DNA from: a virus
Taxonomy: Duplodnaviria; Caudoviricetes
Reading direction: 5' to 3' (one strand)
DNA: 60,423 nucleotides
IMG/VR virus record: IMGVR_UViG_3300037470_000309
Location: 1-60,423 of that record
The notes under the pieces are model-generated. The model saw only the letters and a program-made list of their open reading frames with translations. It made no database searches and had not been told where the DNA came from. A program made the translations under genes and the position numbers. Shown piece after piece: positions 5,549-33,878 of the stretch. How positions within the stretch are numbered: the first letter of the stretch is position 1; each line of letters starts with the position of its first letter.

Positions 5549-6094
5549 ATGGCGAAGAAGCCGGCGAAGAAGAAACGCTACAGCAACGGCAAGGGCGGGC
5601 CGGCGGATTACGACGGGTCCACGCCGCTGACCGACAGCCGGCGCGAAGCCTTCGTACAGAACATCATCTCGGGCCGGTATCCAACCCGGATAGATGCTTT
5701 CGCGGCGGCAGGTTATGCGCGCCAGACAGGCAACCACACCCGCGCCTACAAGGCTCCGGAAGTCCAGACAAGGCTCCGCTGGCTGCAGGCGCAGGTGCAG
5801 GCGAAGACCATCACGGCCGCCGAGGAGATCGCCAAGCGGTTCAACCGGCTGGCGGCGGAAAGCGTTCGCAAGGCGCTCGATGGACTGCAGCATATCGACG
5901 TGAAGAAGCTGAAGCCGTCGGACATCCGCTCGCTGGCGGAGGTCAGCGTGTCGGCCGCCAAGATGTACGAGCTGCTCGAGGGCCGCGCCACCGACCGCAC
6001 CGAGAACGTGACCCGCGACAAGCTGGATCGCCTGATGGACCAGATGCGCACCGAGATCGACGAGAGGCTCGCCAGTGTCCCGACCGTCCACTGA
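5549..6094 (+). CDS. terS: Terminase small subunit
   Basis: LTDSRREAFVQ...AFAAAGY HTH; directly upstream of TerL. Confidence 0.75.
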   Translation: MAKKPAKKKRYSNGKGGPADYDGSTPLTDSRREAFVQNIISGRYPTRIDAFAAAGYARQTGNHTRAYKAPEVQTRLRWLQAQVQAKTITAAEEIAKRFNRLAAESVRKALDGLQHIDVKKLKPSDIRSLAEVSVSAAKMYELLEGRATDRTENVTRDKLDRLMDQMRTEIDERLASVPTVH

Positions 6095-7630: not shown

Positions 7631-9769
7631 ATGGCCGAGCCGCTGAAAGGCACGCCCTTGCCCGACGAGAAGCCGGGCGGGCCCGACGCCGATTTCCTGC
7701 GGGAGGCAAGGGAGCGCTACGTCAACGGCTGGCAGTATGACCAGGACAACCGGGAAGAGGCGCAGGAGGACCTTGAGTTCGGCGCCGGCGAGCAGTGGCC
7801 GCAGGAAATCCGCAAGGAGCGCAAGGAGGACAACCGGCCGATCCTGACCTTCAACCAGATGCCGAAATTCGTGCATCAGGTGGCCGGCGACATCCGGCAG
7901 AACAAGCCCGCCATCAAGGTGCGCCCGGCCGACGACGTATCGGATGAGGAGACCGCCGATATCTTCTCCGGGCTGATCCGCCATGTCGAGGCGCGCTCGG
8001 ATGCCGGCATCGCCTACCAGACCGCGGCCGAAGGGGCAGCGTGGTGCGGCATAGGGCATTTCCGCATCGTCACGGAATATTCGACCGACGACACGTTCGA
8101 GCAGGACATCCGCATCCGGCGGATCACCGATTACGCCGCGGTCACCTGGGACCCGGAAGCCGTCGAGCCAACCCGCGAGGATGCGCGCTGGTGCTTCGTC
8201 GAGCAGTCGATGGACCGGGAAGGATTCAAGAAGAAGTATCCCAAGGCGAGCACGGCGGATTTCGACTTCACGCGCGAGCAGGAAGGCAGCGTGCCGGGCT
8301 GGCAGACCAGGGACTCCGTTCGGGTCGCCGAATACTGGACCAAGACGCCGGAGAAGCGGACGCTCGCGCTGCTGGAGGACGGGCGCACGATCGACGCCAC
8401 CGATCTCGCCGAGGTGGACCTTGCCGCCATGGAGGAGCCGCCGGTCACGGAGTCCGGCCTGCCGGTCAAGGCCGCCTATGTCGGCGAGGACAACGACATC
8501 CTGCTTGCCGTCCGCACTCGCGTCGTCTGGCGCGACAAGGTGGAGATGCGCGTCATCAACGGCGTCGAGGTGCTGGAGGGCCCGTTTCACTGGCCGGGCC
8601 GCCATATCCCGGTCATCCCGGTACTGGGCGAGGAGATCCATGTCGGGCGCCGCACCGTCCGGCACGGCGTGATCCGCTTCGCCAAGGATCCGCAGCGGGC
8701 GTACAATTTCTGGCGAACGGCGCAGACCGAGATGATCGCGCTGCAGCCCAAGGTGCCGTGGCTGGTCACCATCACCAACATCCACGGGCTGGAATCCTAC
8801 TGGCGGCAGGCCAACAACCGGAACCTGCCGTATTTGCTCTACAGGCCGGACGAGAAGAACAACGGCGCGGCGCCGTCGCGCAACGTGCCGCAGATGGGGT
8901 CTTCGGGCATGGCGCAGGAAATCCTGCTCGCCTCGGAGGACCTCAAGAGCACGACGGGCATCTACGACGCCGCCCTGGGCGCGCGGTCGAACGAGAAGTC
9001 CGGCATCGCCATTGCCCAGCGCAAGCAGGAATCCGATGTCGGCACCTTCGCCTATTCGGACAACCTCACCCGCGCCCTGAGGTATGCCGGCCGCCAGCTC
9101 GTGGACCTGATCCCCAAGGTTTACGACACCGAGCGCACCATCCGCGTGCTCAACGAGGACGAATCGACCGAGGCCGTGGTCATCAACCAGAAGGTGACGG
9201 ACCCGGAGACCGGGAAGGAAACCGCGATCCACGACATCACCATCGGGAAATACGATGTGGTCGTGTCCACCGGACCGTCCTTCACCACCAAGCGCCAGGA
9301 AGCCGCCGCCGGGATGATCGACTGGATGAAGGCCGATCCGGAAGGGGCGTCATTGATCCGCGACCTGATCGCCAAGAACCTCGACTGGCCGGGCGCCGAC
9401 GAGATGGCGGAACGGTTCCGGAAAGCCCTTCCTCCGGGACTGGTGGAACCGGAGGAGGACGAGGAGCCGGCCCCCGAGCAGCCGCCGACCCCGGAGCAGC
9501 AGGCGGCGATGATGGAGGCGCAGACCGCACAGGCCGAGCAGCAGCGCAAGGCGCTGGAGTCCGCCGCGAAGGCGGAGAAGACCGAGGCCGAGACCGAAGG
9601 GCTCCGACTCGACAACGCAAAGAAGGCGCTGGAACTGGCGCTGGCGGACGGGGTGCTCGATCCGATCGTCGATCGATTGATAGAACAGCGGCTGGCCGAG
9701 ATGTCCAACCCGCAGCCCGGGCAGCAACAGCAGCCGGCTATGGCCGGCGGACCCGGCCCGCAGCAGTAA
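7631..9769 (+). CDS. P22-like portal protein
   Basis: GEQW...RPILTFN, AKDPQRAYN, GKYDVVVSTGPSFTTKRQEA, C-terminal coiled barrel. Confidence 0.93.
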   Translation: MAEPLKGTPLPDEKPGGPDADFLREARERYVNGWQYDQDNREEAQEDLEFGAGEQWPQEIRKERKEDNRPILTFNQMPKFVHQVAGDIRQNKPAIKVRPADDVSDEETADIFSGLIRHVEARSDAGIAYQTAAEGAAWCGIGHFRIVTEYSTDDTFEQDIRIRRITDYAAVTWDPEAVEPTREDARWCFVEQSMDREGFKKKYPKASTADFDFTREQEGSVPGWQTRDSVRVAEYWTKTPEKRTLALLEDGRTIDATDLAEVDLAAMEEPPVTESGLPVKAAYVGEDNDILLAVRTRVVWRDKVEMRVINGVEVLEGPFHWPGRHIPVIPVLGEEIHVGRRTVRHGVIRFAKDPQRAYNFWRTAQTEMIALQPKVPWLVTITNIHGLESYWRQANNRNLPYLLYRPDEKNNGAAPSRNVPQMGSSGMAQEILLASEDLKSTTGIYDAALGARSNEKSGIAIAQRKQESDVGTFAYSDNLTRALRYAGRQLVDLIPKVYDTERTIRVLNEDESTEAVVINQKVTDPETGKETAIHDITIGKYDVVVSTGPSFTTKRQEAAAGMIDWMKADPEGASLIRDLIAKNLDWPGADEMAERFRKALPPGLVEPEEDEEPAPEQPPTPEQQAAMMEAQTAQAEQQRKALESAAKAEKTEAETEGLRLDNAKKALELALADGVLDPIVDRLIEQRLAEMSNPQPGQQQQPAMAGGPGPQQ

Positions 9770-10162: not shown

Positions 10163-11398
10163 ATGACCGAGACCGTCGACTCCGTCAACAAGACGCCCGC
10201 GCCCGTGCCCGACAACGAAGCGAGCTCCAACCGCTTCGTCGATCCGATGTTCCTGGAGAAGGCCGAAGCCCGCCTCGCCGACGAGCCGGACCAGACGGCC
10301 GCGGAGATCGCCGCCGGGAAGGCCGAAGAGGCCGCCGCCGAGGAAAAGGCGCGCATCGATCGGGGCGACCTGTCGGCGGACGAGCTGAAGGCGGTTCTCG
10401 ACGACAACCCGGACCCCGGCTCGGAGGCCGGGGCAGGCGATGATCAGGGCGAGGATGGAAAGCCCGTGGGGGCGGGTGACGCCGGCACCGCAAAGGACGG
10501 CGACGATCCCGGATCGAAGTCCGGGACGGGGGCCGAAGAGGCCAAGGCTGGCGAGGATGACAACGCCGGCGAGGAAGACGACGAGGACGAGCAGGCGAAA
10601 GACGGCGAGCAGGGCAAGAAGCCGCGCCGCCGCAGCCGCGCCCGCCGCGAGCGCAGGGCGATGGAGCGTAAGCTCGCCGCGCTCGAAAGCGAGATCGCGA
10701 CGCTCAAGGGCACCAAGCCCGCCGCTACCGCCGCAGAGGCGGAGGCCGCAGAGGCCGACGAGATCGGACCGGCACCGACCATCGAAGATCACGAGTTCGA
10801 CACCGGCGAATGGGCGAAAGCCTACACCGAATGGTCGGACAAGCGCATCGACCAGAGCATCCGGAAGGCCATCGAGACCCCGAAGAAAGCCGAGCAGGCC
10901 GCCGCCGCCGAAGAGGCGAGCAAGAAGGCATGGGCAACCTTCCGCGAGCGCGAGGACGATGCCCGCGACCGTTACGACGATTACGACGATGTGGTCTACG
11001 ACACGACCCGGTTCATTCCGGAGTCCGCCGCGAGCCTGATCGTGGAGTCCGAGCAGGGGCCGGAACTGGCCTACTGGCTTGCGACCCATCAGGACGAGGC
11101 GATGAAGCTCCGGGGGCTGAGCGAAGTGCAGCTCGCCCGCGAGATCGGGCGCATCGAGACCCGACTGGCCGCACAGGCCCCGCCGGACGATACCGGCGAC
11201 GACAATTCCGAAGGCGCCGAAGAGGCGAAGGCCGCCGCAGTGGCGGAGCCGAAACCGACTTCGCAGCGGCAGAAGCCGCGGACCCCAACCAAGGCGCCCG
11301 ATCCCGTCCCCACGCTCCGGGGCAGCGCGGCACCCAGCCGCGACCCCAGCAAGATGAGCCAGGATGAATACGAGGCGTGGCGCCGCAGTAAAGGATAG
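10163..11398 (+). CDS. Scaffolding protein
   Basis: Acidic, GPELAYWLA, C-terminal KAPDPV...MSQDEYEAWR; sits between portal and coat. Confidence 0.85.
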   Translation: MTETVDSVNKTPAPVPDNEASSNRFVDPMFLEKAEARLADEPDQTAAEIAAGKAEEAAAEEKARIDRGDLSADELKAVLDDNPDPGSEAGAGDDQGEDGKPVGAGDAGTAKDGDDPGSKSGTGAEEAKAGEDDNAGEEDDEDEQAKDGEQGKKPRRRSRARRERRAMERKLAALESEIATLKGTKPAATAAEAEAAEADEIGPAPTIEDHEFDTGEWAKAYTEWSDKRIDQSIRKAIETPKKAEQAAAAEEASKKAWATFREREDDARDRYDDYDDVVYDTTRFIPESAASLIVESEQGPELAYWLATHQDEAMKLRGLSEVQLAREIGRIETRLAAQAPPDDTGDDNSEGAEEAKAAAVAEPKPTSQRQKPRTPTKAPDPVPTLRGSAAPSRDPSKMSQDEYEAWRRSKG

Positions 11399-11406
11399 CC
11401 ACTCCC

Positions 11407-12639
11407 ATGACCCAGCAAATTCTGGAGCCGAGCATCATCGCCAAGGAAGCGCTGATGCAGCTCGAAAACTCGCTCGTGATGGCCGGTCTCGTCCATCGCG
11501 ACTACAAGAAGGAGTTCGTCAAGATCGGCGACACCGTGACCATCCGCAAGCCGGTGAAGTTCACGGTGACCGACGGCGCCACCCGCTCCAACCAGGATGT
11601 CGAGGAAGGTGCGACCTCCATCGTCATCGACAAGCGCAAGCACGTCTCGTGGAACTTCTCGACGCAGGACCTCACCCTGACGATCGAGCAGTACAGCGAG
11701 CGCTACATCAAGCCGGCGATGATCGTCCTCGCCGACCAGGTGGATCGCGACCTGATGGACCTCTACAAGCACATCTGGAACTGGGTCGGCACGCCGGGCC
11801 AGGCGATCAACTCGTTCAGCGACCTCAAGGAAGCGCCGCAGCGTCTCGACGAGATGGCGGTGCCGGCGGACATGCGCCGCGGCGTCCTCTCGCCGGACGA
11901 TGCGTGGAACATGGTCGCCAACCTGTCGGGTCTCGCGCTCAACGACAAGTCGGGCAGCCCGCAGGAGCAGGCCTACCGGCGCGGCCGTCTCGGCAGCGTC
12001 GCCGACATCGACCTCTACAAAGCGCAGAACGTCAAGCGCCACACGGTCGGTGCCCATGCCGGCACGCCGCTGGTCGATGGGGCCTCGCAGACCACCACCT
12101 ACGCGGACGTGCTGACCTCCTACCAGCAGACCCTCACCACCGACGGCTGGGACGCCTCGATCGACTTGAAGGCGGGCGACGTGTTCACCCTCGACGCGGT
12201 GTTCGCGGTCAACCCGGTGAACAAGGACACGCTGGACTTCCTGCAGCAGTTCGTCCTGGTCTCGGACATCACCACCAACGCGACCACGACCTTGGACACC
12301 GACCTGACCATCTCGCCGCCGATCATCACCTCCGGTCCCTACCAGACCGTCTCGGCGGCGCCGGCCGATGGTGCCACCATCGTCTATCTCGGCACGGCCT
12401 CGACGGCGTACCCCCAGAACCTCGTGTTCCACAAGAACGCGCTGGCGCTGGTCATGTGCCCGCTGGAGATGCCGGACTCGGCAGGATGGAAGGCGCGGCA
12501 GTCGCACCGCAACGTCAGCGTGCGGCTGGTCAAGGACTATAACATCGATGACGATCAGGAGATCATTCGCGCTGATATTCTCTACGGCGTGAAGGCGATC
12601 TACCCGGAGCTCGCTACCCGCGTCTCCGGCGCGTCGTAA
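11407..12639 (+). CDS. P22 gp5-like major capsid protein
   Basis: KIGDTVTIRKP, YIKPAM, NLVFHKNALAL, RADILYG motifs. Confidence 0.93.
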   Translation: MTQQILEPSIIAKEALMQLENSLVMAGLVHRDYKKEFVKIGDTVTIRKPVKFTVTDGATRSNQDVEEGATSIVIDKRKHVSWNFSTQDLTLTIEQYSERYIKPAMIVLADQVDRDLMDLYKHIWNWVGTPGQAINSFSDLKEAPQRLDEMAVPADMRRGVLSPDDAWNMVANLSGLALNDKSGSPQEQAYRRGRLGSVADIDLYKAQNVKRHTVGAHAGTPLVDGASQTTTYADVLTSYQQTLTTDGWDASIDLKAGDVFTLDAVFAVNPVNKDTLDFLQQFVLVSDITTNATTTLDTDLTISPPIITSGPYQTVSAAPADGATIVYLGTASTAYPQNLVFHKNALALVMCPLEMPDSAGWKARQSHRNVSVRLVKDYNIDDDQEIIRADILYGVKAIYPELATRVSGAS

Positions 12640-13014: not shown

Positions 13015-13874
13015 TGCCCTTTCGCCTGGACTTCACGACAACGGGCCTCGTCCCTGACGAGACCTACGTCGCGAACGACAGGCAGAACGCGCAAAGTGGG
13101 GTGCCGTTCATCGGGCTTGTTCCCGAGCCGAACGGCATCCCGCTCGCGGTTGTCGGCGGCGGGCCATCGGCGGCCCGTCACCTCGACACCATTCGTCACT
13201 GGCCGGGCCATGTCTGGGCCGTCAACCAGTCCGCGGCATGGCTGGCGAAAGAAGGCATTACCGACAGGATATGGCTGTTCACCGTCGATCCCGACCCGCT
13301 TCTCGCGGGGCAGGAATGGATCGATGGCGTGGAACGGGCCTTGCTCGGCACCACCTGCGATCCGCTCCTCGTAACGACACTGGCAGGACGCGGTGCCGAC
13401 GTGCGGCTGTTCAACCCGCAGATATCGCCCGAGAACGAGGGCATCATGGCAATCGGCGGGTCGAGCGTGTGCCGTACCTTCATGCCGGCGCTCTGCCTCG
13501 GATACCCAAGCGTTGCCTATTTCGGCTGCGAAGGCTCGTTCGAGGGCGAGTTCGACGCCGATGGAGATTTCCGTCCCCAAACCCATTGGGGCCGCAACGA
13601 GTCGCGTCCGCGCCAGATGGTGGTGCGCTGCGGCGAACAGGATTTCGTGACCACCCCGGATTTCTACCTGACGACGCGTACGCTCGCCGAAGCGCTCCGC
13701 CGCTACCCCGGCGGCATGACCGAGGAAAGCGGCGGGCTGCTGCGCGGCATGCTCGAGCACCCCGATACGTGGGAAGTGGTCGCGCTGTCGCCGGCTCTGG
13801 CGCAGAGCGTCGTCACCGGCGACCTCGCGCAGGTCGTCAACGAAGCCAACCGCTACGTCCCGAGGACCGCATGA
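13014..13874 (+). CDS. DUF115/MAF (MptE-like, glycosyltransferase-related) protein
   Basis: LAVVGGGPS, WAVN, VDP, GGSSV, LGYPSVAYFGCEGSF motifs. Confidence 0.7.
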   Translation: MPFRLDFTTTGLVPDETYVANDRQNAQSGVPFIGLVPEPNGIPLAVVGGGPSAARHLDTIRHWPGHVWAVNQSAAWLAKEGITDRIWLFTVDPDPLLAGQEWIDGVERALLGTTCDPLLVTTLAGRGADVRLFNPQISPENEGIMAIGGSSVCRTFMPALCLGYPSVAYFGCEGSFEGEFDADGDFRPQTHWGRNESRPRQMVVRCGEQDFVTTPDFYLTTRTLAEALRRYPGGMTEESGGLLRGMLEHPDTWEVVALSPALAQSVVTGDLAQVVNEANRYVPRTA

Positions 13875-14110
13875 TCGATTGCAGGGACTTCCCGCCCAGC
13901 ATCCTGCCCGACCTGATCGACGCCCTGCGGCAGGGCAACGAGGCCAAGGCCGCCGAGCTTATCGCGTTTTCGCACGAAGCATGGCGCCAGTGGGGCGAGG
14001 AGCAGAACCGGATCGCTGAGGGCATCGGCGTCTACGTCATGCCCGGCGCCGGCCCGGTCCGCACGGAAGAGGCCATCCGCGCCGCTACCCCGAAATCGTG
14101 GCGCAACTGA
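13871..14110 (+). CDS. Hypothetical protein
   Basis: ATGA overlap; MIDCRDFPPSIL... Confidence 0.55.
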   Translation: MIDCRDFPPSILPDLIDALRQGNEAKAAELIAFSHEAWRQWGEEQNRIAEGIGVYVMPGAGPVRTEEAIRAATPKSWRN

Positions 14111-14133
14111 AGTCTGATCAAGGAGACAAGCCA

Positions 14134-14499
14134 ATGCCAGTCAACGGAGAAATCCAGCGTCGCCTGAGAGAGTACGAAACCCCGCAATGGGGCTACCGAA
14201 GGGGAAAGGACGGGGGGGTCGAAAAGGACCTGTTCGACGGCACCCTGCCGAAGGGATGGTTCGATAGCCCGGCGAGGGTGGACGGCGCCGATGACGACAA
14301 GCCGTCCGATCCTGAGCCCGTGAACGCCCCGGAGCCGGCCGACAACCGAATCGAAGCCGTGACGCCGCCCTACGACGACCGCTACGGCTTCCACCATCTG
14401 CGGCTGGAGATGCAGCGGCGCACCGGGAAAGGCCCGGTGCCGGGCACCACGAGGGTGGACCTGATCAAGGCGCTGGAAGCGCTGGACACCGCCCCGTGA
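14134..14499 (+). CDS. Hypothetical protein
   Basis: RBS AAGGAG; LPKGWFDSPA motif. Confidence 0.6.
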   Translation: MPVNGEIQRRLREYETPQWGYRRGKDGGVEKDLFDGTLPKGWFDSPARVDGADDDKPSDPEPVNAPEPADNRIEAVTPPYDDRYGFHHLRLEMQRRTGKGPVPGTTRVDLIKALEALDTAP

Positions 14500-15158
14500 A
14501 GCACGTCTTTCTCGCGACCCCGGTTCATTCCGGGGACGTGCCGTGCGAATACGTCAGCAGCCTCTTGGATACTGCCATCCTGCTGCTGCGCAACGGCGTG
14601 GCCTATACGCACAGCTTCATCATCGGCGATGCGCTGGTGCATGACGCGCGCAACCGGCTGGCGGCGTGGTTCCTGGCCTCGCCGGCAACCGACCTCCTGT
14701 TCATCGACGCCGATCTCGGCTGGGACCCGGCGGCGGCGCTGCGTCTCGCGCTCTCGCCCCATGACGTGATCGGCGGCGCCTACCCGCAGAAGCGCGAGGA
14801 CGGCGAGATGTACAACGTCGCCGCCCTGAAGCCGGGCGCGACGGGGCTGATGCAGTGCGACTATCTCGGGGCCGGGTTTCTCAAGATATCGCGCCGCGCC
14901 TTCAAGAAGCTGATCCCGCTGCACGAGGACAAGCGCTACCACGACGCGCACGGGACCGAATGCTGCGGCCTGTTCGAGGCGCCGATCGAGGGCGGCAAGA
15001 TCACGGGCGAGGATGCCCTGTTCTGCCGCTACTGGCGGGAGGCCGGCGGCAAGGTGTTCCTCGATCCCGACATCACGTTCCTGCATGTCGGCCGGAAAGC
15101 CTATCGCGGCAACTTCGCCGAGCTGATGGCGCGGGCCCCGAAGGGAGAGGCGGCCTGA
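14496..15158 (+). CDS. GT-A fold glycosyltransferase
   Basis: FLATP, ARNRL, FIDAD (DxD), GAGFLKI, GEDALFC, HVG motifs. Confidence 0.8.
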   Translation: MKHVFLATPVHSGDVPCEYVSSLLDTAILLLRNGVAYTHSFIIGDALVHDARNRLAAWFLASPATDLLFIDADLGWDPAAALRLALSPHDVIGGAYPQKREDGEMYNVAALKPGATGLMQCDYLGAGFLKISRRAFKKLIPLHEDKRYHDAHGTECCGLFEAPIEGGKITGEDALFCRYWREAGGKVFLDPDITFLHVGRKAYRGNFAELMARAPKGEAA

Positions 15159-15159
15159 C

Positions 15160-18036
15160 GTGGCAACCACGGCGCTGAACCTCATCACCCGCACGCTGCG
15201 CCTGATCGGCGTGATCGAGGCCGGGGAAACGCCATCGGCCGAGGATTCCAGCGACGCGCTCACGGCCCTGAACGAGATGCTTTTCAGCTGGGAGAAGCAG
15301 CGCGTTCCCGGCCTGTCGCATACCGCGCTCGCGCTGAGCGACAACATCACGCTGGACGATGCATGGCTGGAGGGGCTCCGCTTCAACCTCGCCGTCCGGC
15401 TCGCGCCTGAATACGGGAATCCGGTTCCCGACTGGATAACCAAGCAGGCGGTCGATACGTTCGAGGCGTTCCGCCTGCGCCGCGCCGACGCCGCGGACGC
15501 CGCGGACGCGACCATTAAGACCGCGGACAACGTGATCACCCGCGCGCTGCGCCTGATCAACGTGCTGAAACCCGGCGAGCAGCCGGCCGCCTTCGACAAG
15601 ACCAACGGGCTCGCGGTGCTCAACGACATGCTGTTCGCGTGGGAGCGCGAAGGCATCGACTACACGCATGTCTCGCTGGCCATCGGCGATGCCCTGACCG
15701 TCGATGATTCATGGATCGACGGCGTGCGGTTCAATCTCGCCGTCAGGCTCGCCCCCGAATACGGCGTGCCGATCCCCGAGCTCGTCGCGACGCGCGCGCT
15801 CGGCGCGTTCGAGGCCATCAAGCGGCCGGTCGCCGCGGTGGTCCAGGACGGCGCCACGGAAACCGCGGTCACCGCCGACATGACGATCCGCCGCGCGCTC
15901 CAGATCGTCGGCGTCATCGAGGCCGGGGAAGACCCGACCACCGGCAACCTCAACCACGGGCTCGCGACCCTCAACCAGATGCTCGCCGCGTGGGAGCGCG
16001 AGAACATCGAGTATGCGCACAGCGATCTCCTGATCAGCGGCACCCTCGCGGTGGACGCGAGCTGGGTCGAGGGCGTCCGCCTCAATCTGGCGCTCCGCCT
16101 GGCGCCGGAATACGGCAGACAGGCGCCGCAATGGCTGATCGACCGCGCAGCCCAGACCTACGAGAGCTTCAGGCGACCGCTGGCCGCCAACCCGACGGAC
16201 GGCGATACCGTCACCAGCAATACCGCCGCCAATATGGTGAAGCGGTCGCTCCGTCTGGTGGGGCTTCTGAAGCCCGGCGAGGAAGTCACGACGGCGGCGG
16301 AGAACAACGGCTTCGCGACGCTCAATGAAATGCTCCATTCGTGGGAGCGCGAAGGCGTCGATTACGCCCATACCAACATCACGTCGGCGGCGACGGCGCT
16401 CAGCGTCGACGAAACGCAGATGGAAGCCGTCAGGTTTAACCTCGCCATCCGCTTCGCCGCGGAGTACCGGGTCGAGGCGCCGGCATGGATCGTCGAGCGC
16501 GCCCGCGAGCTCTACAACAGTCTCCGCCGTCCCGTCGCCGCCGCGCCCGCCGATGGCGATACCGTAACCGCGAATACGGCGGCGAATATGATCAAGCGCG
16601 CGATGCGCCTGATCGGGGTTATCAACGCCTACGAAGACCTCAAGGCCACCGACGAGAACAACGCGCTGGTCGTGCTCAACGACATGCTGCATGGCTGGGA
16701 GCGCATGGGGATCGATTACGATCACACCAGCCTCGCCATAGGCGATGCGCTCGCGGTAGATGAGACATGGATGGAGGCCGTCAGGTTCAATCTGGCGGTG
16801 CGCCTTGCAGGGGAGTACCGCGTCGAAGTCCCGGCGTGGATTTCGGCCGTCGCAACGTCTGGCTTCGAGGCCATCCAGCGCCCGGTCTCGGCCGACCCCG
16901 CCGATCCGGATACCATATCGGCGAACACCGCCGCCAACATGATCAAGCGGGCCATGCGGCTTGTCGGCATCATCCGGGCCGGCGAGGACCTGACGGCCGG
17001 CGACGAGAACAATGCGCTGGCGACGTTGAACGAGATGCTTCATTCCTGGGAACGGGAAGGCATCGAATACGATCATACCACCCTGACCATCGCGCAGGCC
17101 GTCGCGGTCGATGAAACCCAGATGGAGGCGGTCCGCTTCAATCTGGCGGCAAGGCTCGCCACCGAATACGGCAAGCCCGCCGATCAATGGGTGATCGGAC
17201 GTGCGGCGCAGCTTTACGAACACCTGCGCCGGCCGGTGCGCGCCGATCCCACGGACACCGATACGGTCACCGGCAACACGGCGGCCAACATGATCAAGCG
17301 ATCCCTTCGGTTGATCGGGGTGATCGAAGCCTACGAGGACCCGACGGCATCGGTCGAGAACAATGCGCTGGCGGTTCTCAACGAGATGCTCCATTCGTGG
17401 GAGCGCGAGGGGATAGACTACGACCATACCTCGCTCGCCATCGGCGATGCGCTGACGGTGGACGAGACGCAGATGGAGGCCGTGCGCTTCAATCTTGCCT
17501 GCCATCTGGCGATCGAGCACAGGCGCGAGACCCCGGAATGGCTTGCCCTGCGGGCGCGCGAGACCTACATGCAGCTCCGCCGGCCGGTCGCCGCTGACCC
17601 GGCGGACGGCCAGACGGTTTCTTCCCGCACGGCGCAGAACATCATCCAGCGCGCGCTCCGGATGATTCAGGTGATCGAGCCCGGCGAGGCGGCAACGGCG
17701 AGCGACCTCGCCAACTGCCTCGCCACCCTCAACGACATGCTGCATGGCTGGCAGAACGAAGGCGTCGATTTCCAGCATGTCGATGTCGTGCTGGCGGACA
17801 CGCTGCTGATCGACGTGTCGTGGATCGAGACGGTGCGGGTCAACCTCGCCGTCCGGCTGGCGGCGGACTATCCGGAGGCGCGGGTCTCGCCGATGCTTGT
17901 AACTCGAGCGGCGGCGACGTTCGCTTCCATGCAGGCGCACAAGTTCGAATACGACGACGACCTGGCTGTAGACCTTGCCTTGCAGCCGCAGCACTTCAAC
18001 CGCCGTCTCGGCTCCTATGACATAGACGATGGATGA
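15160..18036 (+). CDS. Head-tail adaptor made of eight tandem P22 gp4-like domains
   Basis: Eight ~117-aa units TAxxxIxRALRLIGV...LNEMLxxWE...AVRFNLAVRLAPEY in the gp4 syntenic slot. Confidence 0.85.
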   Translation: MATTALNLITRTLRLIGVIEAGETPSAEDSSDALTALNEMLFSWEKQRVPGLSHTALALSDNITLDDAWLEGLRFNLAVRLAPEYGNPVPDWITKQAVDTFEAFRLRRADAADAADATIKTADNVITRALRLINVLKPGEQPAAFDKTNGLAVLNDMLFAWEREGIDYTHVSLAIGDALTVDDSWIDGVRFNLAVRLAPEYGVPIPELVATRALGAFEAIKRPVAAVVQDGATETAVTADMTIRRALQIVGVIEAGEDPTTGNLNHGLATLNQMLAAWERENIEYAHSDLLISGTLAVDASWVEGVRLNLALRLAPEYGRQAPQWLIDRAAQTYESFRRPLAANPTDGDTVTSNTAANMVKRSLRLVGLLKPGEEVTTAAENNGFATLNEMLHSWEREGVDYAHTNITSAATALSVDETQMEAVRFNLAIRFAAEYRVEAPAWIVERARELYNSLRRPVAAAPADGDTVTANTAANMIKRAMRLIGVINAYEDLKATDENNALVVLNDMLHGWERMGIDYDHTSLAIGDALAVDETWMEAVRFNLAVRLAGEYRVEVPAWISAVATSGFEAIQRPVSADPADPDTISANTAANMIKRAMRLVGIIRAGEDLTAGDENNALATLNEMLHSWEREGIEYDHTTLTIAQAVAVDETQMEAVRFNLAARLATEYGKPADQWVIGRAAQLYEHLRRPVRADPTDTDTVTGNTAANMIKRSLRLIGVIEAYEDPTASVENNALAVLNEMLHSWEREGIDYDHTSLAIGDALTVDETQMEAVRFNLACHLAIEHRRETPEWLALRARETYMQLRRPVAADPADGQTVSSRTAQNIIQRALRMIQVIEPGEAATASDLANCLATLNDMLHGWQNEGVDFQHVDVVLADTLLIDVSWIETVRVNLAVRLAADYPEARVSPMLVTRAAATFASMQAHKFEYDDDLAVDLALQPQHFNRRLGSYDIDDG

Positions 18037-18140
18037 CCATGCCTAACAGGACCATGGCCGGGGGAAAGAGCCGGCCCAAGCCGAAGCCGAAGCCGAAGCC
18101 GAAGCCCAAGCCCGTCAAGCGCCCGCGGCCGGGGTACTGA
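18033..18140 (+). CDS. Tiny basic (KP)n peptide
   Basis: ATGA overlap; SRPKPKPKPKPKPKPVKRPRPGY. Confidence 0.45.
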   Translation: MTMPNRTMAGGKSRPKPKPKPKPKPKPVKRPRPGY

Positions 18141-18141
18141 T

Positions 18142-18423
18142 GTGAAGCTGGTCCGGCTGAATCGCGAGCGCGAGCGCCGCGAGAAGCGGGAACGAGACTC
18201 GGCCAAGGCGTGGCTGGTGAACGCCGCTCGCAACGCACCCATGGATATCGACGGGTTCGGGCTGGTGGTCTATCGCAACGAGCCAGACGGCACGATTACC
18301 ACGCGCACCAACTTCTTTACGCGGAACACGATGGACACCGCGCGGCTGCCGGAACTGGCAAGGCGGGAACTGGATCACTGGGGCCGCAAGGTGACCCGGC
18401 CCGATCCGGACGATGACGACTGA
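18142..18423 (+). CDS. Hypothetical protein
   Basis: Operon-contiguous ORF coupled to the gp10-like gene. Confidence 0.55.
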   Translation: MKLVRLNRERERREKRERDSAKAWLVNAARNAPMDIDGFGLVVYRNEPDGTITTRTNFFTRNTMDTARLPELARRELDHWGRKVTRPDPDDDD

Positions 18424-19814
18424 TGCTGATTCCCTTCGCCGTCAACAGCTACAAGGCCCGCGCGCTTCCGTTCTCCGCCCAGCGGTGCGTCAACTACTTC
18501 GCCGAGTCCGCCCCGAAGGACGCCAAGACGCCGGTCATCGTCTACAACGCGCCGGGCATCGCGTCCTTCTCCGACGGTCTCGCGGGGGCCGTGCGCGGCA
18601 GCCACCGGATGAACGGCATCGCCTACGTGGTGGCGGGCGACCGGCTCTACAGCATCGCCGCGACCGGGACGGAAACATCTCTCGGGACCATCAACACCTC
18701 GACCGGCCCGGTTTCGATGGCGTCCAACCGGGCCGACCCGCAGCAGCTCTGCTTCGTCGATGGAACCGACGGCTGGATCTACGACACGTCGTCGGGTTTG
18801 CAGGAGATCGTGGACGCCGATTTCGAGGCGGCCGATACGGTCACCTTTCAGGACGGGTATTTCATCTTCAGCGTGGCCGGCACGTCGAAGTTCCGGATAT
18901 CAGCCCTCGATGACGGGCTGGATCACACCGCGACCGACTTCGCCGAGGCCGAGTCCAACGCCGACGAGGTGGTGGCGGTGTGGTCCTCGCAGCAGCAGCT
19001 GTGGGTGTTCAAGGAAACGATCACCGAGATCTACTACAACTCGGGTAACGCCGACTTTCCGTTCGAACGGATCGCCGGCGGGGTGATCGAGCGGGGCTGC
19101 GCCGCGGCGTTCTCCATCGCGGCCGACGACAACACGCTGTTCTGGCTCGGCAACGATCGGGTGATCTACCGCGCCGCCGGGGCGCCGATCCGCATCTCGA
19201 CCCACGCGATCGAGGAAGAGCTGCGCGGCAAGGATGTCTCCGATGCGCGGGGCTGGTTCGTCACCCTGGCCGGGCACAAGTTCTACCATCTGGTTTTCCC
19301 GACCGCGCGGCTCGCCTTCGTCTATGACGTGGCGGCCCAGCTCTGGCACGAGCGGGAGAGCTTCGGGGTGCGACACTTCCGGTTCACCACCTATGTCGAG
19401 GCCTATGGCAAGCATCTGGTGGGGGATGCGTTTCAGGGCCGCGTCGGCGAGCTCGACATGGACACCTTCACCGAATTCGGCGGCACCATGCAGGGCATTA
19501 TGACCGGCCCGCCCATCCACAACGATCGCAAGCGGGTGTTCCACCGCCTGCTCGAGATCGACATCGAATCGGGCGTCGGCACCACGTCGGGCCAGGAGCC
19601 GCAGATGTGGCTGGACTGGTCGGATGACGGCGGCCGCACCTTCTCCGTCCGCAAGCCGAAGCGCAGCATGGGCAAGATCGGCGAATACCGGCAGCGGCTG
19701 CGCTGGACCCGGCTGGGCTCGGCACGGGAGCGCGTCTACCGGCTGACCGTGGCGGATGCCGTGAAACGCTCCGTGATGGCGGCGCATCTCAACGGACAGG
19801 AAGGAGCGCACTGA
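18423..19814 (+). CDS. P22 gp10-like tail hub (packaged DNA stabilisation protein)
   Basis: QRCVNYF, DGYFIF, AESNAD, FPFERI, GCAA, WSDDGGRTF, GEYRQRLRWTRLG. Confidence 0.9.
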   Translation: MLIPFAVNSYKARALPFSAQRCVNYFAESAPKDAKTPVIVYNAPGIASFSDGLAGAVRGSHRMNGIAYVVAGDRLYSIAATGTETSLGTINTSTGPVSMASNRADPQQLCFVDGTDGWIYDTSSGLQEIVDADFEAADTVTFQDGYFIFSVAGTSKFRISALDDGLDHTATDFAEAESNADEVVAVWSSQQQLWVFKETITEIYYNSGNADFPFERIAGGVIERGCAAAFSIAADDNTLFWLGNDRVIYRAAGAPIRISTHAIEEELRGKDVSDARGWFVTLAGHKFYHLVFPTARLAFVYDVAAQLWHERESFGVRHFRFTTYVEAYGKHLVGDAFQGRVGELDMDTFTEFGGTMQGIMTGPPIHNDRKRVFHRLLEIDIESGVGTTSGQEPQMWLDWSDDGGRTFSVRKPKRSMGKIGEYRQRLRWTRLGSARERVYRLTVADAVKRSVMAAHLNGQEGAH

Positions 19815-20074
19815 TGCCGCAGCTCAACGCGCCGCCGGCCGCGCAAGCCCTGACCGAGCGCAGCGGACAGGTCTCGCTGGGCTGGGCACAGTGGTTCACG
19901 CAGCTATGGCGGACGGTGGTGCCGGAGCGGGCGTTCTACATCCCGACCACGGACGGCGCGCCGGCATTCACACCCGAGGCGAGGGCAGGGTTCGCGCCGA
20001 TGACCTTCGATCCCGCGACCGGGATTCTCTACATCCACGACGAATCCAACTGGCTGAGCACGACACTGACATAA
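19814..20074 (+). CDS. Small tail-associated protein (gp26 position)
   Basis: TGATG coupling; WAQWFTQLW motif; position after gp10. Confidence 0.55.
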   Translation: MPQLNAPPAAQALTERSGQVSLGWAQWFTQLWRTVVPERAFYIPTTDGAPAFTPEARAGFAPMTFDPATGILYIHDESNWLSTTLT

Positions 20075-20646
20075 TGAAAAATTTCCAGCTTATCGGCCGC
20101 GGGCTCGACATGGTGCCGCTGCATCACGCGCTGATCCGCCAGCCCGGTCTGTGGAACCGGCACGCCTTCCGCCGCACCTATGAAAACACCCCGCATTCGG
20201 AGGTCGATGACATCTGGCTGCGCTATTCGGACGAGAACAGGACCGCCGATCCCAGAGACACGGCGGCGGTGCAGAACGACCATTCCGCCGTCTGGTATCC
20301 CGAGGCCGCGAAGCTGCCGGAAGCGAAAAAGCTGGTCATGGACCTGATGCACTATCTCGGGGCCTATGCGCTGGAGCGGCTGGTGATTTCCAGACTGGCG
20401 CCGGCGAAGCGGATTCTCCCCCACGCCGACGCGGTTGGGGATTACGTCCATCTCCGCGACATCGCGCGCTACCACATCGTTGTTCAAGGCCTTCCCGGCT
20501 CCATGTTCCATTGCGGCGACGAGACCGTGAACATGCAGACCGGCGAAATCTGGTGGTTTTCCGCCCACGAAACCCATTCGGTCGAGAATAATTCAGCGGA
20601 CGACCGCGTTCACCTGATGGCTGATCTCCGGCAATGGCCGTGCTGA
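20074..20646 (+). CDS. Aspartyl/asparaginyl beta-hydroxylase-like 2OG-Fe(II) oxygenase
   Basis: ILPHAD (HxD), RYHIV, GEIWWF, HSVENNSADDRVHL. Confidence 0.85.
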   Translation: MKNFQLIGRGLDMVPLHHALIRQPGLWNRHAFRRTYENTPHSEVDDIWLRYSDENRTADPRDTAAVQNDHSAVWYPEAAKLPEAKKLVMDLMHYLGAYALERLVISRLAPAKRILPHADAVGDYVHLRDIARYHIVVQGLPGSMFHCGDETVNMQTGEIWWFSAHETHSVENNSADDRVHLMADLRQWPC

Positions 20647-21095
20647 CGTGCGCCGTCGAATCCTTCATCGATCGGCTCGACGAGCTGAAACCGTTGCTTC
20701 CCGGACACTGGGAGGAGCTGGCGCTGGACAAGGACCAGGTGCCGCTCGATCCGCAATACGAGGTGTATTTCGACCGGGAACGGAAGGGCGAACTGCTGTT
20801 CGTCACCCTGCGGTCATCCGGTGCGATGGTGGGCTACTTCATCGCCTTCATCGCGCAGGGCCTCCACTACCGGACCTGTCTCACCTGTACGATGGATATC
20901 TTCTACGTCCATCCGGACCACAGGGGCAGGGGCGGAGGCTTGCGGCTGTTCCGGTTCGTGAAATCGGAGCTGCAACGGCGCGGCGTACAGCGCTGGTTCG
21001 TCGGATCGAAGCTCCACCGGGACGCGAGCCGGCTGTTCGAGGCGATGGGGTTCGAGCCCGTGGAGACTTATTACAGCCTGTGGCTTGGAGAGTGA
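20634..21095 (+). CDS. GNAT acetyltransferase
   Basis: DIFYVHPDHRGRGGGLRL, LFEAMGF. Confidence 0.85.
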   Translation: MAVLTCAVESFIDRLDELKPLLPGHWEELALDKDQVPLDPQYEVYFDRERKGELLFVTLRSSGAMVGYFIAFIAQGLHYRTCLTCTMDIFYVHPDHRGRGGGLRLFRFVKSELQRRGVQRWFVGSKLHRDASRLFEAMGFEPVETYYSLWLGE

Positions 21096-23850: not shown

Positions 23851-26800
23851 GTGGCGACCGTCCTGACCTTCGGCGAAAACGACGCCCCGGTCTTCGGAGC
23901 GGATGACGCCTTCGCCTTCGGCGCTCGGGACATCCCTGCGTTCGGCGCCGACGATGCACCCGCTTTCCCGGATGGCGAGCCGGCGGACCTCCCTGCCGCC
24001 GTGCGCGCCGGCGTGGCCGGGGATGCTGTACCGGTCGCCCCGGCCGCGTCACAAGAGGATAGCTGGGCGGCGCTCGGCAGGAAGGTGATCGAGAACGCGC
24101 CCACGATGTTCAAGCAGGCGGCCGGCGGTGCCCTTCAGGCGATCGCCGAGACCCCACCGTCCCCGCCTCCCGGAATCGAGCCGACCGATCCGATGTGGCA
24201 GGGCGTCGTCTCCGCCCACCGCGAGCGCATCGGCAAGGGCGGTCCGGACGAGACCGGGCGTAAAATCTACGAGGAGGCGACCGCCGATCTCAAGGCCAAC
24301 GCGCCCAAGGTCGATCCGGAAAGCCTCAAGGGCTACGCCTACGACATCGCGCAGGGCATCGTCCAGATGGGCCCCGCCATTACCGCGGCCATCGCCGCCC
24401 GCAGCCCGGCCCCGGCGGTCGGCATCATCGCCACGCAGGTCGGCGGGCACCGCTACGGCGAATCCCGTGCGGAAGGGCGCACCCCCGAGCAGGCGGCGAC
24501 CGACGCCGTGTTTTACGCCGCCGCCGAGGCGATCCCGGAAAGCGTCCCGCTCGGCATCCTGATGAAGCCCGGCGGCAAGTTCCTTTCCCGCGTCCTCAAG
24601 GTCGGCGGCGCCGAGGGCGTGCAGGAGATGTTCACCGAGGCCCTGCAGACCGGCTACGACGCCGGCGCGCTGGGCGAGGAGATGACGTGGGGCGAGGCCG
24701 TCGATCAGATCCGCCGGGCCGGCATCGTGGGCGTCGGGGTCGGCGGTGGCATCGCGGTCGTGACACAACCGTTCGACCGTGGCGCGCAGCCCACGGAGCC
24801 GCCGCCTGACGCGCAGGAAGGCCCGACAGCCCCGGCACCCGGGACGGCCCCTGTGCGCGAGGATATGGCCGCAGCGGAGACGGACTTCGGGCAGGACGAC
24901 TCTCCCGCCTTCCCCGAGGGCGCCGTGCCGGCCGAGACGGTGATCGGGCAGGAAGCGGAGCCGGGGCAGGACGTTGGCGGTTATGTAGAAGGTGAAAAGT
25001 ATTCGGGCCACGTATCGGATGTCACCGCGCTTGATCCGAAAACGCTCAGGGTTCGCGATGCTGGCGAGGTTCGCGAGGTTTCCGATGAAGTCGCCCGGAA
25101 CATGGATTTCTCGGAGCCCGTAGAGATCACCCTGTTTGCCGATGGCACCAGGATCATCAACGACGGTCACCATAGGGTTGCTGCCGCAAAGCGGCTCGGG
25201 ATGAAGTCCATTCCGGTTCGCCTGATCGGTGTTAACGCCAGAGCACCGGCCATTAATGCAGCAGTCGATGAATCGCGTGCGCTTAGCGCCGAGCAGCCCG
25301 ACGCGCCCATCCTGACTGACATGGCAGAGCCGGCCGAGGAAATCACCCCGCAGGCCCCGGAAACCGTGGCACAGGAGCCGGTCGGGGCGCCCGAGGAAAT
25401 CAGTCCCGCGTTGCGTTCTCCGGAATTAATTAATCGTCCGAAAAGCGACGTGGCCGCTGCGCCCGAGCAAGCATCACCGGCCCAACCCGCTGAAACGCAA
25501 GCCGTTTCCGAGACCGCGCGCGCCGCCGACACCACCTCGCCCGAGACCACGCACGCTCGCCTCGCCAAGCCCGTCCTCGCCAGCACGGTATCCCTGACCC
25601 CGGACGCCATTGCCAAGGCGCACGGCATCGAGACCCGCGAGGCGTCCCGGCTGTTGCAGGAGATGGCGAAGCGGGGAGAAATCCGGGCCGTCTCGTCGAC
25701 CACGGCCTACGACAACCTGGTGAAGCGCCGCGGCCAGATCGAAGGCAGCACATCCATCAAGCCGGCGGCGAAGAAACGCGTGCTGGCGAAGATCGACGAG
25801 CAGATCGCACAGGTAGGTGGCAAGGTCCGCTACCGCAGGCCGCAGAAAAGGGGACCGCTGACGCTTTCGCAGTTCGTGGCATCCAAAGGCGGCATCAGGG
25901 ATGAGGGCGGCGAGTTGTCCGCGATGGACCTTGGCAACCGCACCATGATCCCCGGCTTCGGCCCCCTTGTCCGGTCGAAAGGCCGGCAGCTCGACTATGC
26001 CCGCGAGGCTGCCGTCGAGGTAGGATATCTTCCCGAAGGCTCGACCGTCGCCGATTTCCTCGACGCCATCCGGCGGGACACGTCCGGGAAAGACGCGCGC
26101 GGCAAGGTGTTCTCCCAAGCCGACGAGAGCGAGGTTGCCGGGCGCATCGAGACAGCGGAGAGCGAAGCCGAGCAGGCGCGCGAGAGCAACGCCCGCGCGG
26201 AGATCGCGGCCGCCGTCAAGTCGATCGGCATGGTGCCGGCCGACGAAACAGGCGCCGTGGCCCGTGTCATGGCCGGCGAAGATTCCCTCGATGTTGTTGC
26301 TGACATCTGGGAGCGTGCGGCGCTACAATCGGAGTCCGATGCCCGAGACGAAATCGAAGATACCGCCCGCCGAGAGGGCGAAGAGGCTCCGCCGCTTGGC
26401 GAGCGATCCGCGCCTGAGCGCGAAGAAGAAACGCGAGCTGCGGATGCTGGCCGCACAGGGCGACAAGCTGGGCGCGCTGATGAAGAAGCGGGACGCGGCG
26501 AAGGCGTAAAGCCGCTCTACGCCAACCGTCCCGTCACCAACGCCGCCGATATCGTCGCATGGGCCAAGGCCCAGGGCTTCAAGCAGACCCTCCGCCCCGA
26601 AGACATGCACGTCACCGTCGCGTTCTCGCGCGAGCCGGTGGAGTGGGAAGCGGTCGGCGAGACCGCCAAGCAGATCGGGTCGGCGCCGGGCGGGGCGCGC
26701 GCCGTCGAGAAACTCGGCGACGAGGGCGCGGTCGTGCTGCGCTTCGAGAACGGCCAGTTGAAGAAGCGCTGGCAGCTGTATCGCAACGCCGGCGCATCAT

Positions 26801-32525: not shown

Positions 32526-33878
32526 ATGGCATCGCTTTTCATCGTACCCGCCGAGCAGGTGTTCGACGCCAACGGCGACCCGATTTCCGGGGCGAAGCTG
32601 AACGCCTATGAAAGCGGGACGCTGACCAGAAAGGACACCTTCTCCGATTCCGGGCTGACGACGGCGAACGCCAACCCGGTTGTCGCCGATGCAGACGGCC
32701 GGTTCATCCCGATCTACATCGAGAGCGGCGATTACCGTTTCGTCCTCACCGACGCCGCCGATGTGGAGATATGGGACGCCGATCCGGTCTCCGGCTCGGC
32801 CGGGGCATCCGGCGCCGTCGAGGATGTCAGCGCCTCGCAGAACGTCGAGATCGACGATGCCACGAAGGTGTTCGCGGTGGACGCCTCGGGCGGTGCGGTC
32901 ACGATCACGCTGCTTGCCGCGGCTACTGCCGGGGATGGATTCGAGATCACGGTCAAGAAGACCGACACCTCCGTTAACCTGGTCACCATCGACGGCAACG
33001 GGGCGGAGACCATCGACGGGGCGACGACGCTTGTTCTGTCGGCCAAGGATCAGTCCGTTACGCTGCGTTGCGATGCGGGCGAATGGCATGTGGTTTCGTC
33101 CTATGCGATGTCGGCCGGCATCGTGACGTGGCGAAAGGGCGCCGATATCGCCTCCGCCTCTCCCTTGGTGCTGGGAACGGATGGCAACTATTTCGACGTT
33201 ACCGGCACCACGGGGTTCTCCGCCATCACGGTCGCAGCCGGAACATTGTTCATGCTGCAATTCGACGCCGCGCTTACCCTGACACATGGTGCCTCCCTCG
33301 ATCTTCCCGGAGAAGCCAATATCACGACGGCGGCGGGGGACCGGCTGATCGGGTTCGCCGAAGCGGCAAACACCGTGCAGGTGCTGAGCTATTTCAGGGC
33401 GGATGGACAACCGCTGGCTACGAAGTCAGGAGGCGTCGTCCAGGTCGTCAACACCCAAGACGGCGCGGTGGCGACGGGCACCACGGCCCTTCCCGCCGAT
33501 GACACAATCCCGCAGAACGATGAGGGCGATGAGTACCTGGAACTCGCCATCACGCCGACCGATGCCGGCAACACCCTCCTGATCGACGTTGTGCTGTGTT
33601 ACACACACAGCGTCGATACAGCCATCGCTGTGGCGCTGTTTCAAGACGCCACCGCTGCCGCTCTTGCCGCGGTCGCTAACAATCTAGGTGCGGCGGGCGC
33701 GGCGGAAGTCGCCGCATTTCGGCACACCATGACCGCCGGCACAACCTCGGAGACGACATTCAAGGTCCGCGCCGGTGGAAACACGGGATCGACAATGACG
33801 GTCAACGGCGCCAGCAGCGCCCGGCTGTACGGCGGCGTCATCGCCTCGTCTATCACCATCACGGAGATTGCGGCATGA
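32526..33878 (+). CDS. Tail fibre/tailspike-position protein
   Basis: N-terminal DANGDPISGAKL...NPVVADADGRF attachment-type domain; C-terminal VVQVV...SITITEIAA. Confidence 0.8.
   Translation: MASLFIVPAEQVFDANGDPISGAKLNAYESGTLTRKDTFSDSGLTTANANPVVADADGRFIPIYIESGDYRFVLTDAADVEIWDADPVSGSAGASGAVEDVSASQNVEIDDATKVFAVDASGGAVTITLLAAATAGDGFEITVKKTDTSVNLVTIDGNGAETIDGATTLVLSAKDQSVTLRCDAGEWHVVSSYAMSAGIVTWRKGADIASASPLVLGTDGNYFDVTGTTGFSAITVAAGTLFMLQFDAALTLTHGASLDLPGEANITTAAGDRLIGFAEAANTVQVLSYFRADGQPLATKSGGVVQVVNTQDGAVATGTTALPADDTIPQNDEGDEYLELAITPTDAGNTLLIDVVLCYTHSVDTAIAVALFQDATAAALAAVANNLGAAGAAEVAAFRHTMTAGTTSETTFKVRAGGNTGSTMTVNGASSARLYGGVIASSITITEIAA

Follow-up and report, generated by a model that had tools for sequence, protein, structure and literature searches.

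The array gene and its eight units

The window analysed here is the whole of IMG/VR record IMGVR_UViG_3300037470_000309, a 60,423-bp stretch of DNA (64% G+C; 87% complete by CheckV) from a tailed phage of the Caudoviricetes. Between 15160 and 18036 on the + strand it carries an open reading frame (ORF) of 958 amino acids (aa), here called the adaptor array, which is divided into eight tandem units resembling gp4, the head-tail adaptor of phage P22. The ORF starts with GTG, ends with a stop codon at 18034-18036 and begins 1 nucleotide (nt) after the stop of the preceding gene (14496-15158), with a Shine-Dalgarno-like GGGAGAGG run about 10 nt upstream of its start. Unit boundaries were set by anchoring on the motif LN.ML..W, which gives the following division:

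15160..15510, + strand: unit 1 (aa 1-117), a first-type unit with the most canonical alpha1-alpha2 loop; probably the hub-facing end
15511..15861, + strand: unit 2 (aa 118-234), internal, with no resolved place in the unit tree
15862..16212, + strand: unit 3 (aa 235-351), internal
16213..16566, + strand: unit 4 (aa 352-469), internal
16567..16917, + strand: unit 5 (aa 470-586), internal
16918..17268, + strand: unit 6 (aa 587-703), internal
17269..17619, + strand: unit 7 (aa 704-820), internal
17620..17940, + strand: helical core of unit 8 (the unit spans aa 821-958), orthologue of the last unit of the two-unit relatives P0009 and L005
17941..18033, + strand: C-terminal arm of unit 8 (aa 928-958), putatively portal-binding

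Of the seven repeat periods, six measure 351 nt and one 354 nt. The motif LN[EDQ]ML..W[EQ] is present in 8/8 units and VR[FLV]NLA in 7/8, unit 1 having LRFNLA at that place. Units 3-7 each close with a linker of 12-13 aa of the RRPVAADPxDxDTV type. In pairwise comparison the units are 38-68% identical in aa and 52-67% in nt; codons differ in 31-67% of the columns where two units share a residue, and the synonymous divergence (dS, NG86) between units is 0.8-2.1, values at which we term synonymous sites saturated. Pairs drawn from units 4-7 have a ratio of nonsynonymous to synonymous divergence (dN/dS) of 0.15-0.30, and pairs that include unit 3 one of 0.33-0.54; by this measure the internal units are under purifying selection. 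A preliminary description made from the letters of the window had likewise read the ORF as eight units in 958 aa, with a period of mostly 351 bp and differing synonymous sites, and these points hold. Its unit starts have moved by 9 nt (three codons) from unit 2 on, the number of units being unchanged, and of its core motifs the LN motif is indeed common to all units while the VR motif is confined to seven. An antisense ORF of 761 aa (15709-17994, - strand) runs through the array as a by-product of the high G+C content and the repeat; gene callers may emit wrong-frame ORFs of this kind.

The preliminary description had also held that the array is not a collapsed or over-assembled repeat, and the assembly data agree. 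Because the units are so diverged and share no long exact repeat, an assembler is not expected to have collapsed or inflated them; the copies are 60-74% alike as DNA repeats, and Tandem Repeats Finder did not detect a DNA-level array in the ORF. A Logan contig of 12,212 bp matches window positions 13500-18066 without a single difference or gap. It stems from the sole public run that holds the sequence, possibly the source sample itself, so that it adds a second assembler but no second sample. That dependence on one run is what favours a real genome with fewer than eight units, an explanation that we nevertheless regard as extremely unlikely: two assemblers returned identical contiguous sequence at a word depth of about 14x, the DNA identity between units is low, the reading frame is open across all eight units and these are under purifying selection, and arrays are present in many other assemblies. 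A read joint from 15497 to 15892, which skips 394 nt and has 21 letters on its shorter side, was dismissed as a spurious short match, the skipped length not being a multiple of the period.

The assignment of the units to the gp4 family, already made in the preliminary description, was examined with several profiles. The array protein matches PF11650 (P22_Tail-4) with 93.1 bits, the cut-off being 21 (E = 2.5e-26), and phrog_637 ("head-tail adaptor Ad3") at E = 2.3e-73 in 8 stretches. A single-unit profile was built from 93 single-unit adaptor relatives of 120-145 aa, in which the core occupies about positions 3-106 and the arm about 107-132. All eight units score 110-137 bits against this profile over positions 3-106; unit 8 alone extends to position 132 and thus into the arm, a feature of each of the 93 single-unit relatives. 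A profile of the eight units reached the solved P22 gp4 chains 8eb7, 8eao, 8tvu, 4v4k and 5gai at E = 7e-4 to 2e-3, with an alignment covering unit positions 3-104, the whole core; a phmmer search of PDB with the full-length array protein found gp4 at E = 0.27-0.53 only. The ESMFold model of the array protein in the ESM Atlas has a pTM of 0.25 and a pLDDT of 0.59, and its unit 8 superimposes on predicted models of P22_Tail-4 clusters with TM values of 0.73 by query and 0.66-0.75 by row. Collectively, these results support each unit as a gp4-type adaptor domain, the four-helix core fold being a prediction backed by sequence and by the comparison of one predicted model with others. Canonical members of the gp4 family have one domain per chain, and with eight units in 958 aa the array is a variant architecture.

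No second adaptor was found in the record, as had been claimed: the PF11650 search of the 60,423 bp gave 4 matches, all within the array ORF, and a search of the 574 ORFs of the record with the unit profile (hmmsearch --max) gave only noise at E>2, a negative that covers the sequenced 87% of the genome. Because no other adaptor-like ORF is present there, the array protein must do the adaptor's job.

Gene order around the array

Judged by profile matches and gene order, the array occupies the gp4 slot of a P22-like module that runs portal, scaffold, coat, array and gp10-like hub. The genes of the module are as follows:

6075-7628: terminase large subunit, by profile match
7631..9769, + strand: P22-type portal (PF16510, E = 3.3e-196; Sf6 portal 7sfs, 1.2e-58; P22 portal 3lj5, 5e-48)
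10163-11398, + strand: scaffold, by profile match
11407-12639, + strand: P22-type coat, by profile match
14496..15158, + strand: conserved gene upstream of the array (phrog_1574), 59% identical in L005
18039-18423: two small ORFs between array and hub
18423..19814, + strand: gp10-like tail hub, Hc3 (phrog_578, E = 3.2e-113; hexameric chains 9vyg_M, 6.5e-35, and 7eeq_1, 2e-23)
from 21085: ejection-type genes, by profile matches
32526..33878, + strand: tailspike candidate, whose N-terminal ~120 aa resemble head-binding domains (9vyg_n, E = 2.4e-14; 7eeq_A, 9.4e-12)

The portal would be the docking partner of unit 8 and the gp10-like hub the partner of unit 1.

Directly after the array, a putative 33-aa ORF (18039-18140, + strand) would specify a strongly basic peptide in which consecutive KP dipeptides derive from a GCCGAA tandem repeat of 6 nt at 18074-18112; at the same position the syntenic loci L005 and L069 have unrelated ORFs of 149 and 140 aa. 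The interval between the hub and the ejection-type genes (19891-21095, + strand) holds a cupin resembling Asp/Asn beta-hydroxylases (PF05118, E = 7e-13) and a GNAT acetyltransferase (PF00583, 2e-9). This is an unusual location for modifying enzymes and may point to modification of virion proteins. After the ejection-type genes lies an ORF of 2732 aa (23851-32049, + strand) with an Acb1 anti-CBASS phosphodiesterase domain at aa 888-1030 (PF23474, E = 6e-39; phrog_755), a stretch resembling an endolysin PHROG at aa 1316-1487 and one resembling a giant PHROG of unknown function at aa 1728-1877. Its product may be an injected giant protein that delivers a counter-defence enzyme.

Arrays of other lengths and the polarity of their units

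A HMMER search of 1.84 billion representative proteins with the unit profile returned 3609 matches at E<=1e-3, of which the best 150 were examined; match scores sum over the units of a protein, so arrays are over-represented among them. One of the 150, P0010 (4834 aa, 45 stretches), had the look of a giant array and was rejected as a G-rich wrong-frame repeat scoring about 3.5 bits per stretch, a product similar to the antisense ORF of the window. Among the 149 real matches 50 are arrays of 2-8 units, distributed as follows:

1 unit: 99
2 units: 15
3 units: 21
4 units: 4
5 units: 1
6 units: 8
8 units: 1 (the array protein's own cluster)

Eight is the largest number found, and a search for longer arrays met none above 1677 aa, which is weak evidence. 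Two kinds of unit occur: helix-only units (H), as in the array, and units (B) with an insertion of about 100-240 aa between helices 2 and 3. This insertion is of the SU10/T7 type (PF24175), the terminal unit type of many related arrays (P0004-P0007, L097-L116), and is in none of the eight units of the array. The architectures seen among the best 150 are HH, HHH, HHHHHB, BHHHHB, BB and BBB, and it is the last unit that holds the arm in 22 cases, another part of the chain in 2. The family phrog_12985 (238 positions), taken at first for a two-unit family, proved to be one unit carrying a beta insertion. Close to the array's own subfamily, arrays are rare: motif-based scans found them at 1/60 IMG/VR loci, at 0/4 loci in species genomes and at 0/27 loci in JGI metagenomes. 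IMG/VR scans with P0017 and P0014 gave no matches.

Several other loci show arrays in genomic context. L005, a 4-kb contig of 57% G+C, has a phrog_1574-like gene, a two-unit adaptor, the 149-aa ORF and the beginning of a hub gene, 62% identical to the hub of the window. L069, a viral contig of 34.8 kb and 41% G+C from an unrelated phage, has a six-unit adaptor of 731 aa in the same slot, in the order terminase, phrog_156 portal, scaffold, phrog_283 coat, array, 140-aa ORF, phrog_578 hub and ejection protein. A third group, the H(n)B lineage, was found at 20 IMG/VR loci with complete ORFs (two units at 5 loci, three at 9, four at 4 and five at 2) and in database proteins of 4, 5, 5, 6 and 7 units whose terminal units are 45-65% identical, so that the lineage overall spans 2-7 units. 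At its loci L109 and L112 the slot is unchanged, and portal, scaffold, coat and hub come from the families seen here. In a tree of terminal units, sister pairs differ in unit number (5 vs 2, 5 vs 4, 3 vs 2, 7 vs 6 and 4 vs 5). A difference of one unit is also seen between near-identical proteins: P0014 and P0156 are 100% identical apart from a gap of 119 aa, P0017 and P0158 are 97.5% identical with a gap of 111 aa, and P0004 and P0006 are 98.9% identical with a gap of 127 aa. At six H(n)B loci no neighbouring gene scales with unit number, the downstream gene ranging from 375 to 1717 aa with no trend. Homologues with other repeat counts, which the preliminary description had proposed to look for, exist; its view of the array as a one-off is not supported in the face of the 50 arrays listed, the six-unit L069 and the H(n)B lineage.

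The ORF downstream of the H(n)B arrays in L097, L100, L106, L109, L112 and L115 is hypervariable, belonging to unrelated families with no PHROG match amid conserved portal, coat and hub families, and is probably a receptor-binding cassette. Separate adaptor genes were met as well. At 5318-8086 of L033, a 50.6-kb viral contig, stand four adjacent adaptor-like genes of about 230 aa each with the beta insertion, an unfused counterpart of an array. Two separate adaptor genes occur in L079 (adjacent), L083 (overlapping) and L084, L087 and L090 (about 2 kb apart), a set resembling the neck-adaptor and tail-adaptor design of phages phi24B and GP4.

The relationships among units were determined from a maximum-likelihood tree that included 73 units. 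In it the first unit of P0009, a two-unit relative, groups with unit 1 of the array (support 99/88), to which it is 71% identical, compared with 39-49% to the other array units, and unit 2 of P0009 pairs with unit 8 (100/97). Units 3-7 form one clade (98/91), and the placement of unit 2 is ambiguous. The same pattern is seen in P0011, P0012, P0014, P0015, P0017, P0020 and P0024, where the middle units cluster within each protein and the end units are shared between proteins; either independent expansion or concerted evolution may lie behind this clustering of the middle units. First units from 11/12 H(n)B loci fall together in one well-separated clade regardless of unit number. The apparent exception, L097, was discounted, as its true first unit had been dropped by a filter. 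First and terminal units of L109, used singly in PDB searches, gave nothing useful.

Segments of each unit were also scored against the single-unit profile. The alpha1-alpha2 loop scores 36 bits in unit 1, 26 in unit 8 and 2-22 in the internal units; the alpha4 segment scores 14 bits in unit 1, 15 in unit 8 and 2-9 in the internal units. The arm segment reaches +24.1 bits in unit 8 and is negative in every other unit (-22.7 in unit 1, -12.7 to -29.9 in the internal units), in agreement with the earlier claim that a distinct C-terminal tail is confined to unit 8. In 15 of 19 other arrays the loop score is highest in the first unit, against 6.1 expected by chance, the arrays not being phylogenetically independent. 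In Sf6, adaptor residues 16-36, the region of the alpha1-alpha2 loop, differ between the free and the assembled state, and the adaptor arm reaches up to the portal, where it inserts between two portal protomers (Sf6 paper). In ΦcrAss001, residues 15-26 of the ring-5 protein are reported to take two conformations to bind the six-fold muzzle. These comparisons of unit sequences show a polar design, with a conserved first-type unit, an expandable middle and a last unit that alone has the arm. Since these papers put the loop on the distal side, facing the hub, and the arm at the portal, the chain would run from N to C terminus as hub end, expandable middle and portal end.

Arrangement of the units in the virion and its meaning

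Every unit of the array belongs to the domain family of P22 gp4 and Sf6 gp7, and the array shares with these adaptors the slot between coat and hub next to a P22-type portal; unit 8, like them, consists of a helical core and a C-terminal arm. The known adaptors differ in being single domains, with solved chains of 150-166 aa and uncultured single-unit relatives of 124-145 aa, and in forming one dodecameric ring, whereas the array fuses eight units in 958 aa, seven of them without the arm. In Sf6 the adaptors must already stand as a dodecameric ring for the hub to bind, which it does where two adaptors meet, and the head-binding domain of the tailspike also contacts adaptors (Sf6 paper). In the best-supported reading, which in our judgement has an even chance of being right, twelve chains of the array would form eight covalently linked stacked rings, so that neck length would follow repeat number. 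Stacking is proposed here from the polarity of the chain and its free repeat number, and by analogy with known ring stacks.

In such an assembly, twelve array chains would gather on the portal and unit 8 would dock, as the P22 and Sf6 adaptors do, with its arm lodged between portal subunits. Below unit 8, each of units 7 to 1 would close a further dodecameric ring, with units 7-2 as spacer rings and the 12-13-residue linkers joining the rings where an arm would otherwise stand. Unit 1 would be the distal ring, offering the 12-to-6 interface to the gp10-like hub and to the head-binding domains of the tailspike. The neck channel would then be about 25-37 nm long, the upper value taken from the 23 nm of the five ΦcrAss001 rings and the lower from helices of 16-18 residues, and gain or loss of middle units in evolution would change its length. 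Architectures such as BHHHHB read naturally as a portal ring, spacer rings and a ring for fibres or hub. The preliminary description had seen a puzzle in the fact that 8 does not divide 12; the number of units stands, and the puzzle disappears if twelve chains stack their units.

Stacked rings have direct precedent in ΦcrAss001 and phi24B, and in the simplest reading the array would be a covalent version of such a stack. In ΦcrAss001, five stacked dodecameric rings, R1-R5, are built by four paralogous adaptor-fold proteins (gp43, gp40, gp35 and gp34) to a length of about 23 nm, and the authors of its description propose for this barrel a role in bridging a capsule of some 30 nm and in holding cargo. 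The array and ΦcrAss001 have in common several paralogous adaptor-fold modules per virion, in a number that varies among relatives, and the last ring of ΦcrAss001 adapts to a six-fold partner. The crassvirus differs in having separate genes, each protein with an added beta-sandwich domain, while the modules of the array are helix-only, covalently linked and found in a P22-like phage, their stacking being proposed. Phage phi24B (gp64/gp62) and Ralstonia phage GP4 have a neck adaptor and a tail adaptor that form two rings, the proximal one docking on the portal and the distal one making the 12-to-6 transition to the nozzle and anchoring fibres; the phi24B authors put the number of adaptor rings at one to three. 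The two-unit relatives of the array (P0009, L005 and the HB forms) look like such an adaptor pair in fused form. The pair itself is encoded by two separate genes, 18% identical, with no fused chain.

Several observations weigh against a stack. The clustering of internal units can equally arise from concerted evolution, and the three pairs differing by one unit could be assembly collapses, the internal units being very alike. The Atlas monomer model has no confident packing between units, which is weak counter-evidence because P22 gp4 is monomeric off the portal (Sf6 paper). In descriptions of adaptors the beta insertion between helices 2 and 3 belongs to an upper domain, and helix 4 ends at the portal, where the hook also lies; by analogy both ends of the helical core would be on the portal-proximal face, so that each linker must climb one ring height in a stack. 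The climb is feasible with 12-13 residues and tight for those relatives whose linkers have 6-7. Finally, the loop of unit 8 is fairly canonical, which is compatible with a hub seated directly on unit 8.

This last point, together with the unpacked Atlas model, leads to an alternative that we consider unlikely while taking it seriously. Unit 8 alone would sit in the dodecameric ring, to which its arm as well as its loop is suited, and units 1-7 of the twelve chains would hang outside as flexible strings forming a collar or whiskers, whose conserved tip, unit 1, would attach to something else such as capsid, fibre or host surface. Such strings would permit any repeat number, as is seen, and the conserved first unit also suits a tip function. 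Twelve N-terminal chains would, however, have to leave a ring whose distal face holds the hub and the tailspike head-binding domains. The internal units, at 110-130 bits and with low dN/dS, are conserved beyond the needs of spacer beads, and the loop of unit 1 is the one most like that of hub-binding adaptors, as is the loop of the first unit in the 15 of 19 further arrays. The adaptor literature consulted for comparison describes stacked rings and not adaptor-fold whiskers.

The inferred position of the core ends and the unit counts bear on a second alternative, in which consecutive units lie side by side in pseudo-symmetric rings. For the array this corresponds to the earlier suggestion that 3 chains give 24 positions in two rings, and in relatives 6x2, 4x3, 3x4 or 2x6 chains and units would each close one ring. 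If both core ends share a face, a side-by-side link is the shortest, in keeping with linkers of 6-7 residues in some arrays, and a fused pair would suit the 2:1 adaptor:hub interface of Sf6. In addition, 48/50 arrays among the best 150 of 3609 have 2, 3, 4 or 6 units, divisors of 12, a count that also tells against stacking. As an exclusive rule the divisor pattern was discarded, since proteins of 5, 7 and 8 units exist. Because arrays have 2-8 units, including 5 and 7 in clearly distinct relatives, closure of a 12-position ring by whole chains is argued against, and sister phages differ in unit number. Side-by-side rings would further leave one arm per chain to reach the portal, though single-unit adaptors conserve theirs; distinct conserved first, middle and last types are not needed in a ring of equivalent positions, and HHHHHB and BHHHHB would place 2 or 4 beta-domains in a 12-position ring. 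We consider this arrangement, and with it the proposal of three chains, improbable.

The linkers suggest a third possibility, also raised in the preliminary description, that the array is a polyprotein cut at the RRPVAADP-type linkers into monomers of about 13 kDa, which then form one ring or several. The linker motif is conserved between units 2-7, and eight non-identical subunits from one gene would have a fixed stoichiometry. No protease family was matched among the window ORFs scanned, from terminase through tailspike, and a scaffold gene of P22 type is part of the module. Modules of this type are not known to require a prohead protease. Released internal units would be devoid of the arm that all single-unit relatives carry. 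Conservation is no higher in the linkers than in the cores, and in other arrays the linkers are A/T/P/D-rich and vary in sequence and length: 74 linkers in 37 arrays measure 4-15 residues (median 10; one more junction was mis-parsed) and are dissimilar between arrays, as befits spacers more than a common cleavage site. Cleavage into monomers is, in our view, very improbable.

Podophage tails are regarded as short and fixed in design. The known ways of lengthening them are separate paralogous ring genes, as in ΦcrAss001 and phi24B, or long tubes, as in N4-like and phi29-like phages. We looked for earlier accounts of arrays in the literature and in deposited phages. No description of a tandem-domain adaptor was found in open PMC papers or bioRxiv. 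A tblastn search of 50,697 deposited phage records with array proteins as queries gave, for the eight-unit P0001, one record with a single-unit gene; for the three-unit P0029 and the six-unit P0024, no match; and for the two-unit P0038, 26 records, in whose inspected rows either both units of the query align to one gene of about 120 aa or one unit alone is matched, the phages inspected including Xylella phage Xfas53 and P22-like coliphages. The array clusters that were looked up are named only "hypothetical protein". The architecture recurs in metagenomes, and no description of it turned up in the papers and phage records searched, so that of the condition named earlier, multi-repeat gp4 proteins being both common and already characterised, one half holds. 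What is new is the fused array of variable unit number, the adaptor family and ring stacking being already known, and the array of the window stands at the extreme of a recurrent, undescribed design shared by uncultured P22-like phages. Annotation pipelines label such proteins as single adaptors or hypothetical proteins.

More generally, and tentatively, since we put the chances somewhat below even, P22-like podophages of uncultured bacteria may build an n-ring neck tube from one polypeptide, with unequal recombination among middle units altering the number of rings in the manner of a variable-number tandem repeat and making neck length rapidly evolvable. A fused variable-number array would be a third and genetically simple route to a longer tail, in which one gene suffices and repeat number sets length. 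It also raises a question of assembly, namely how a chain of potentially ring-forming units orders itself on the portal. Should the units be displayed instead of stacked, the array would be the first adaptor-fold appendage. The series from 2 to 8 units is a natural experiment in which repeat number could be set against neck length and host envelope. If the proposal is true, neck length would be tuned to the thickness of the host capsule or envelope, and the neck might also provide lumen space for ejected cargo.

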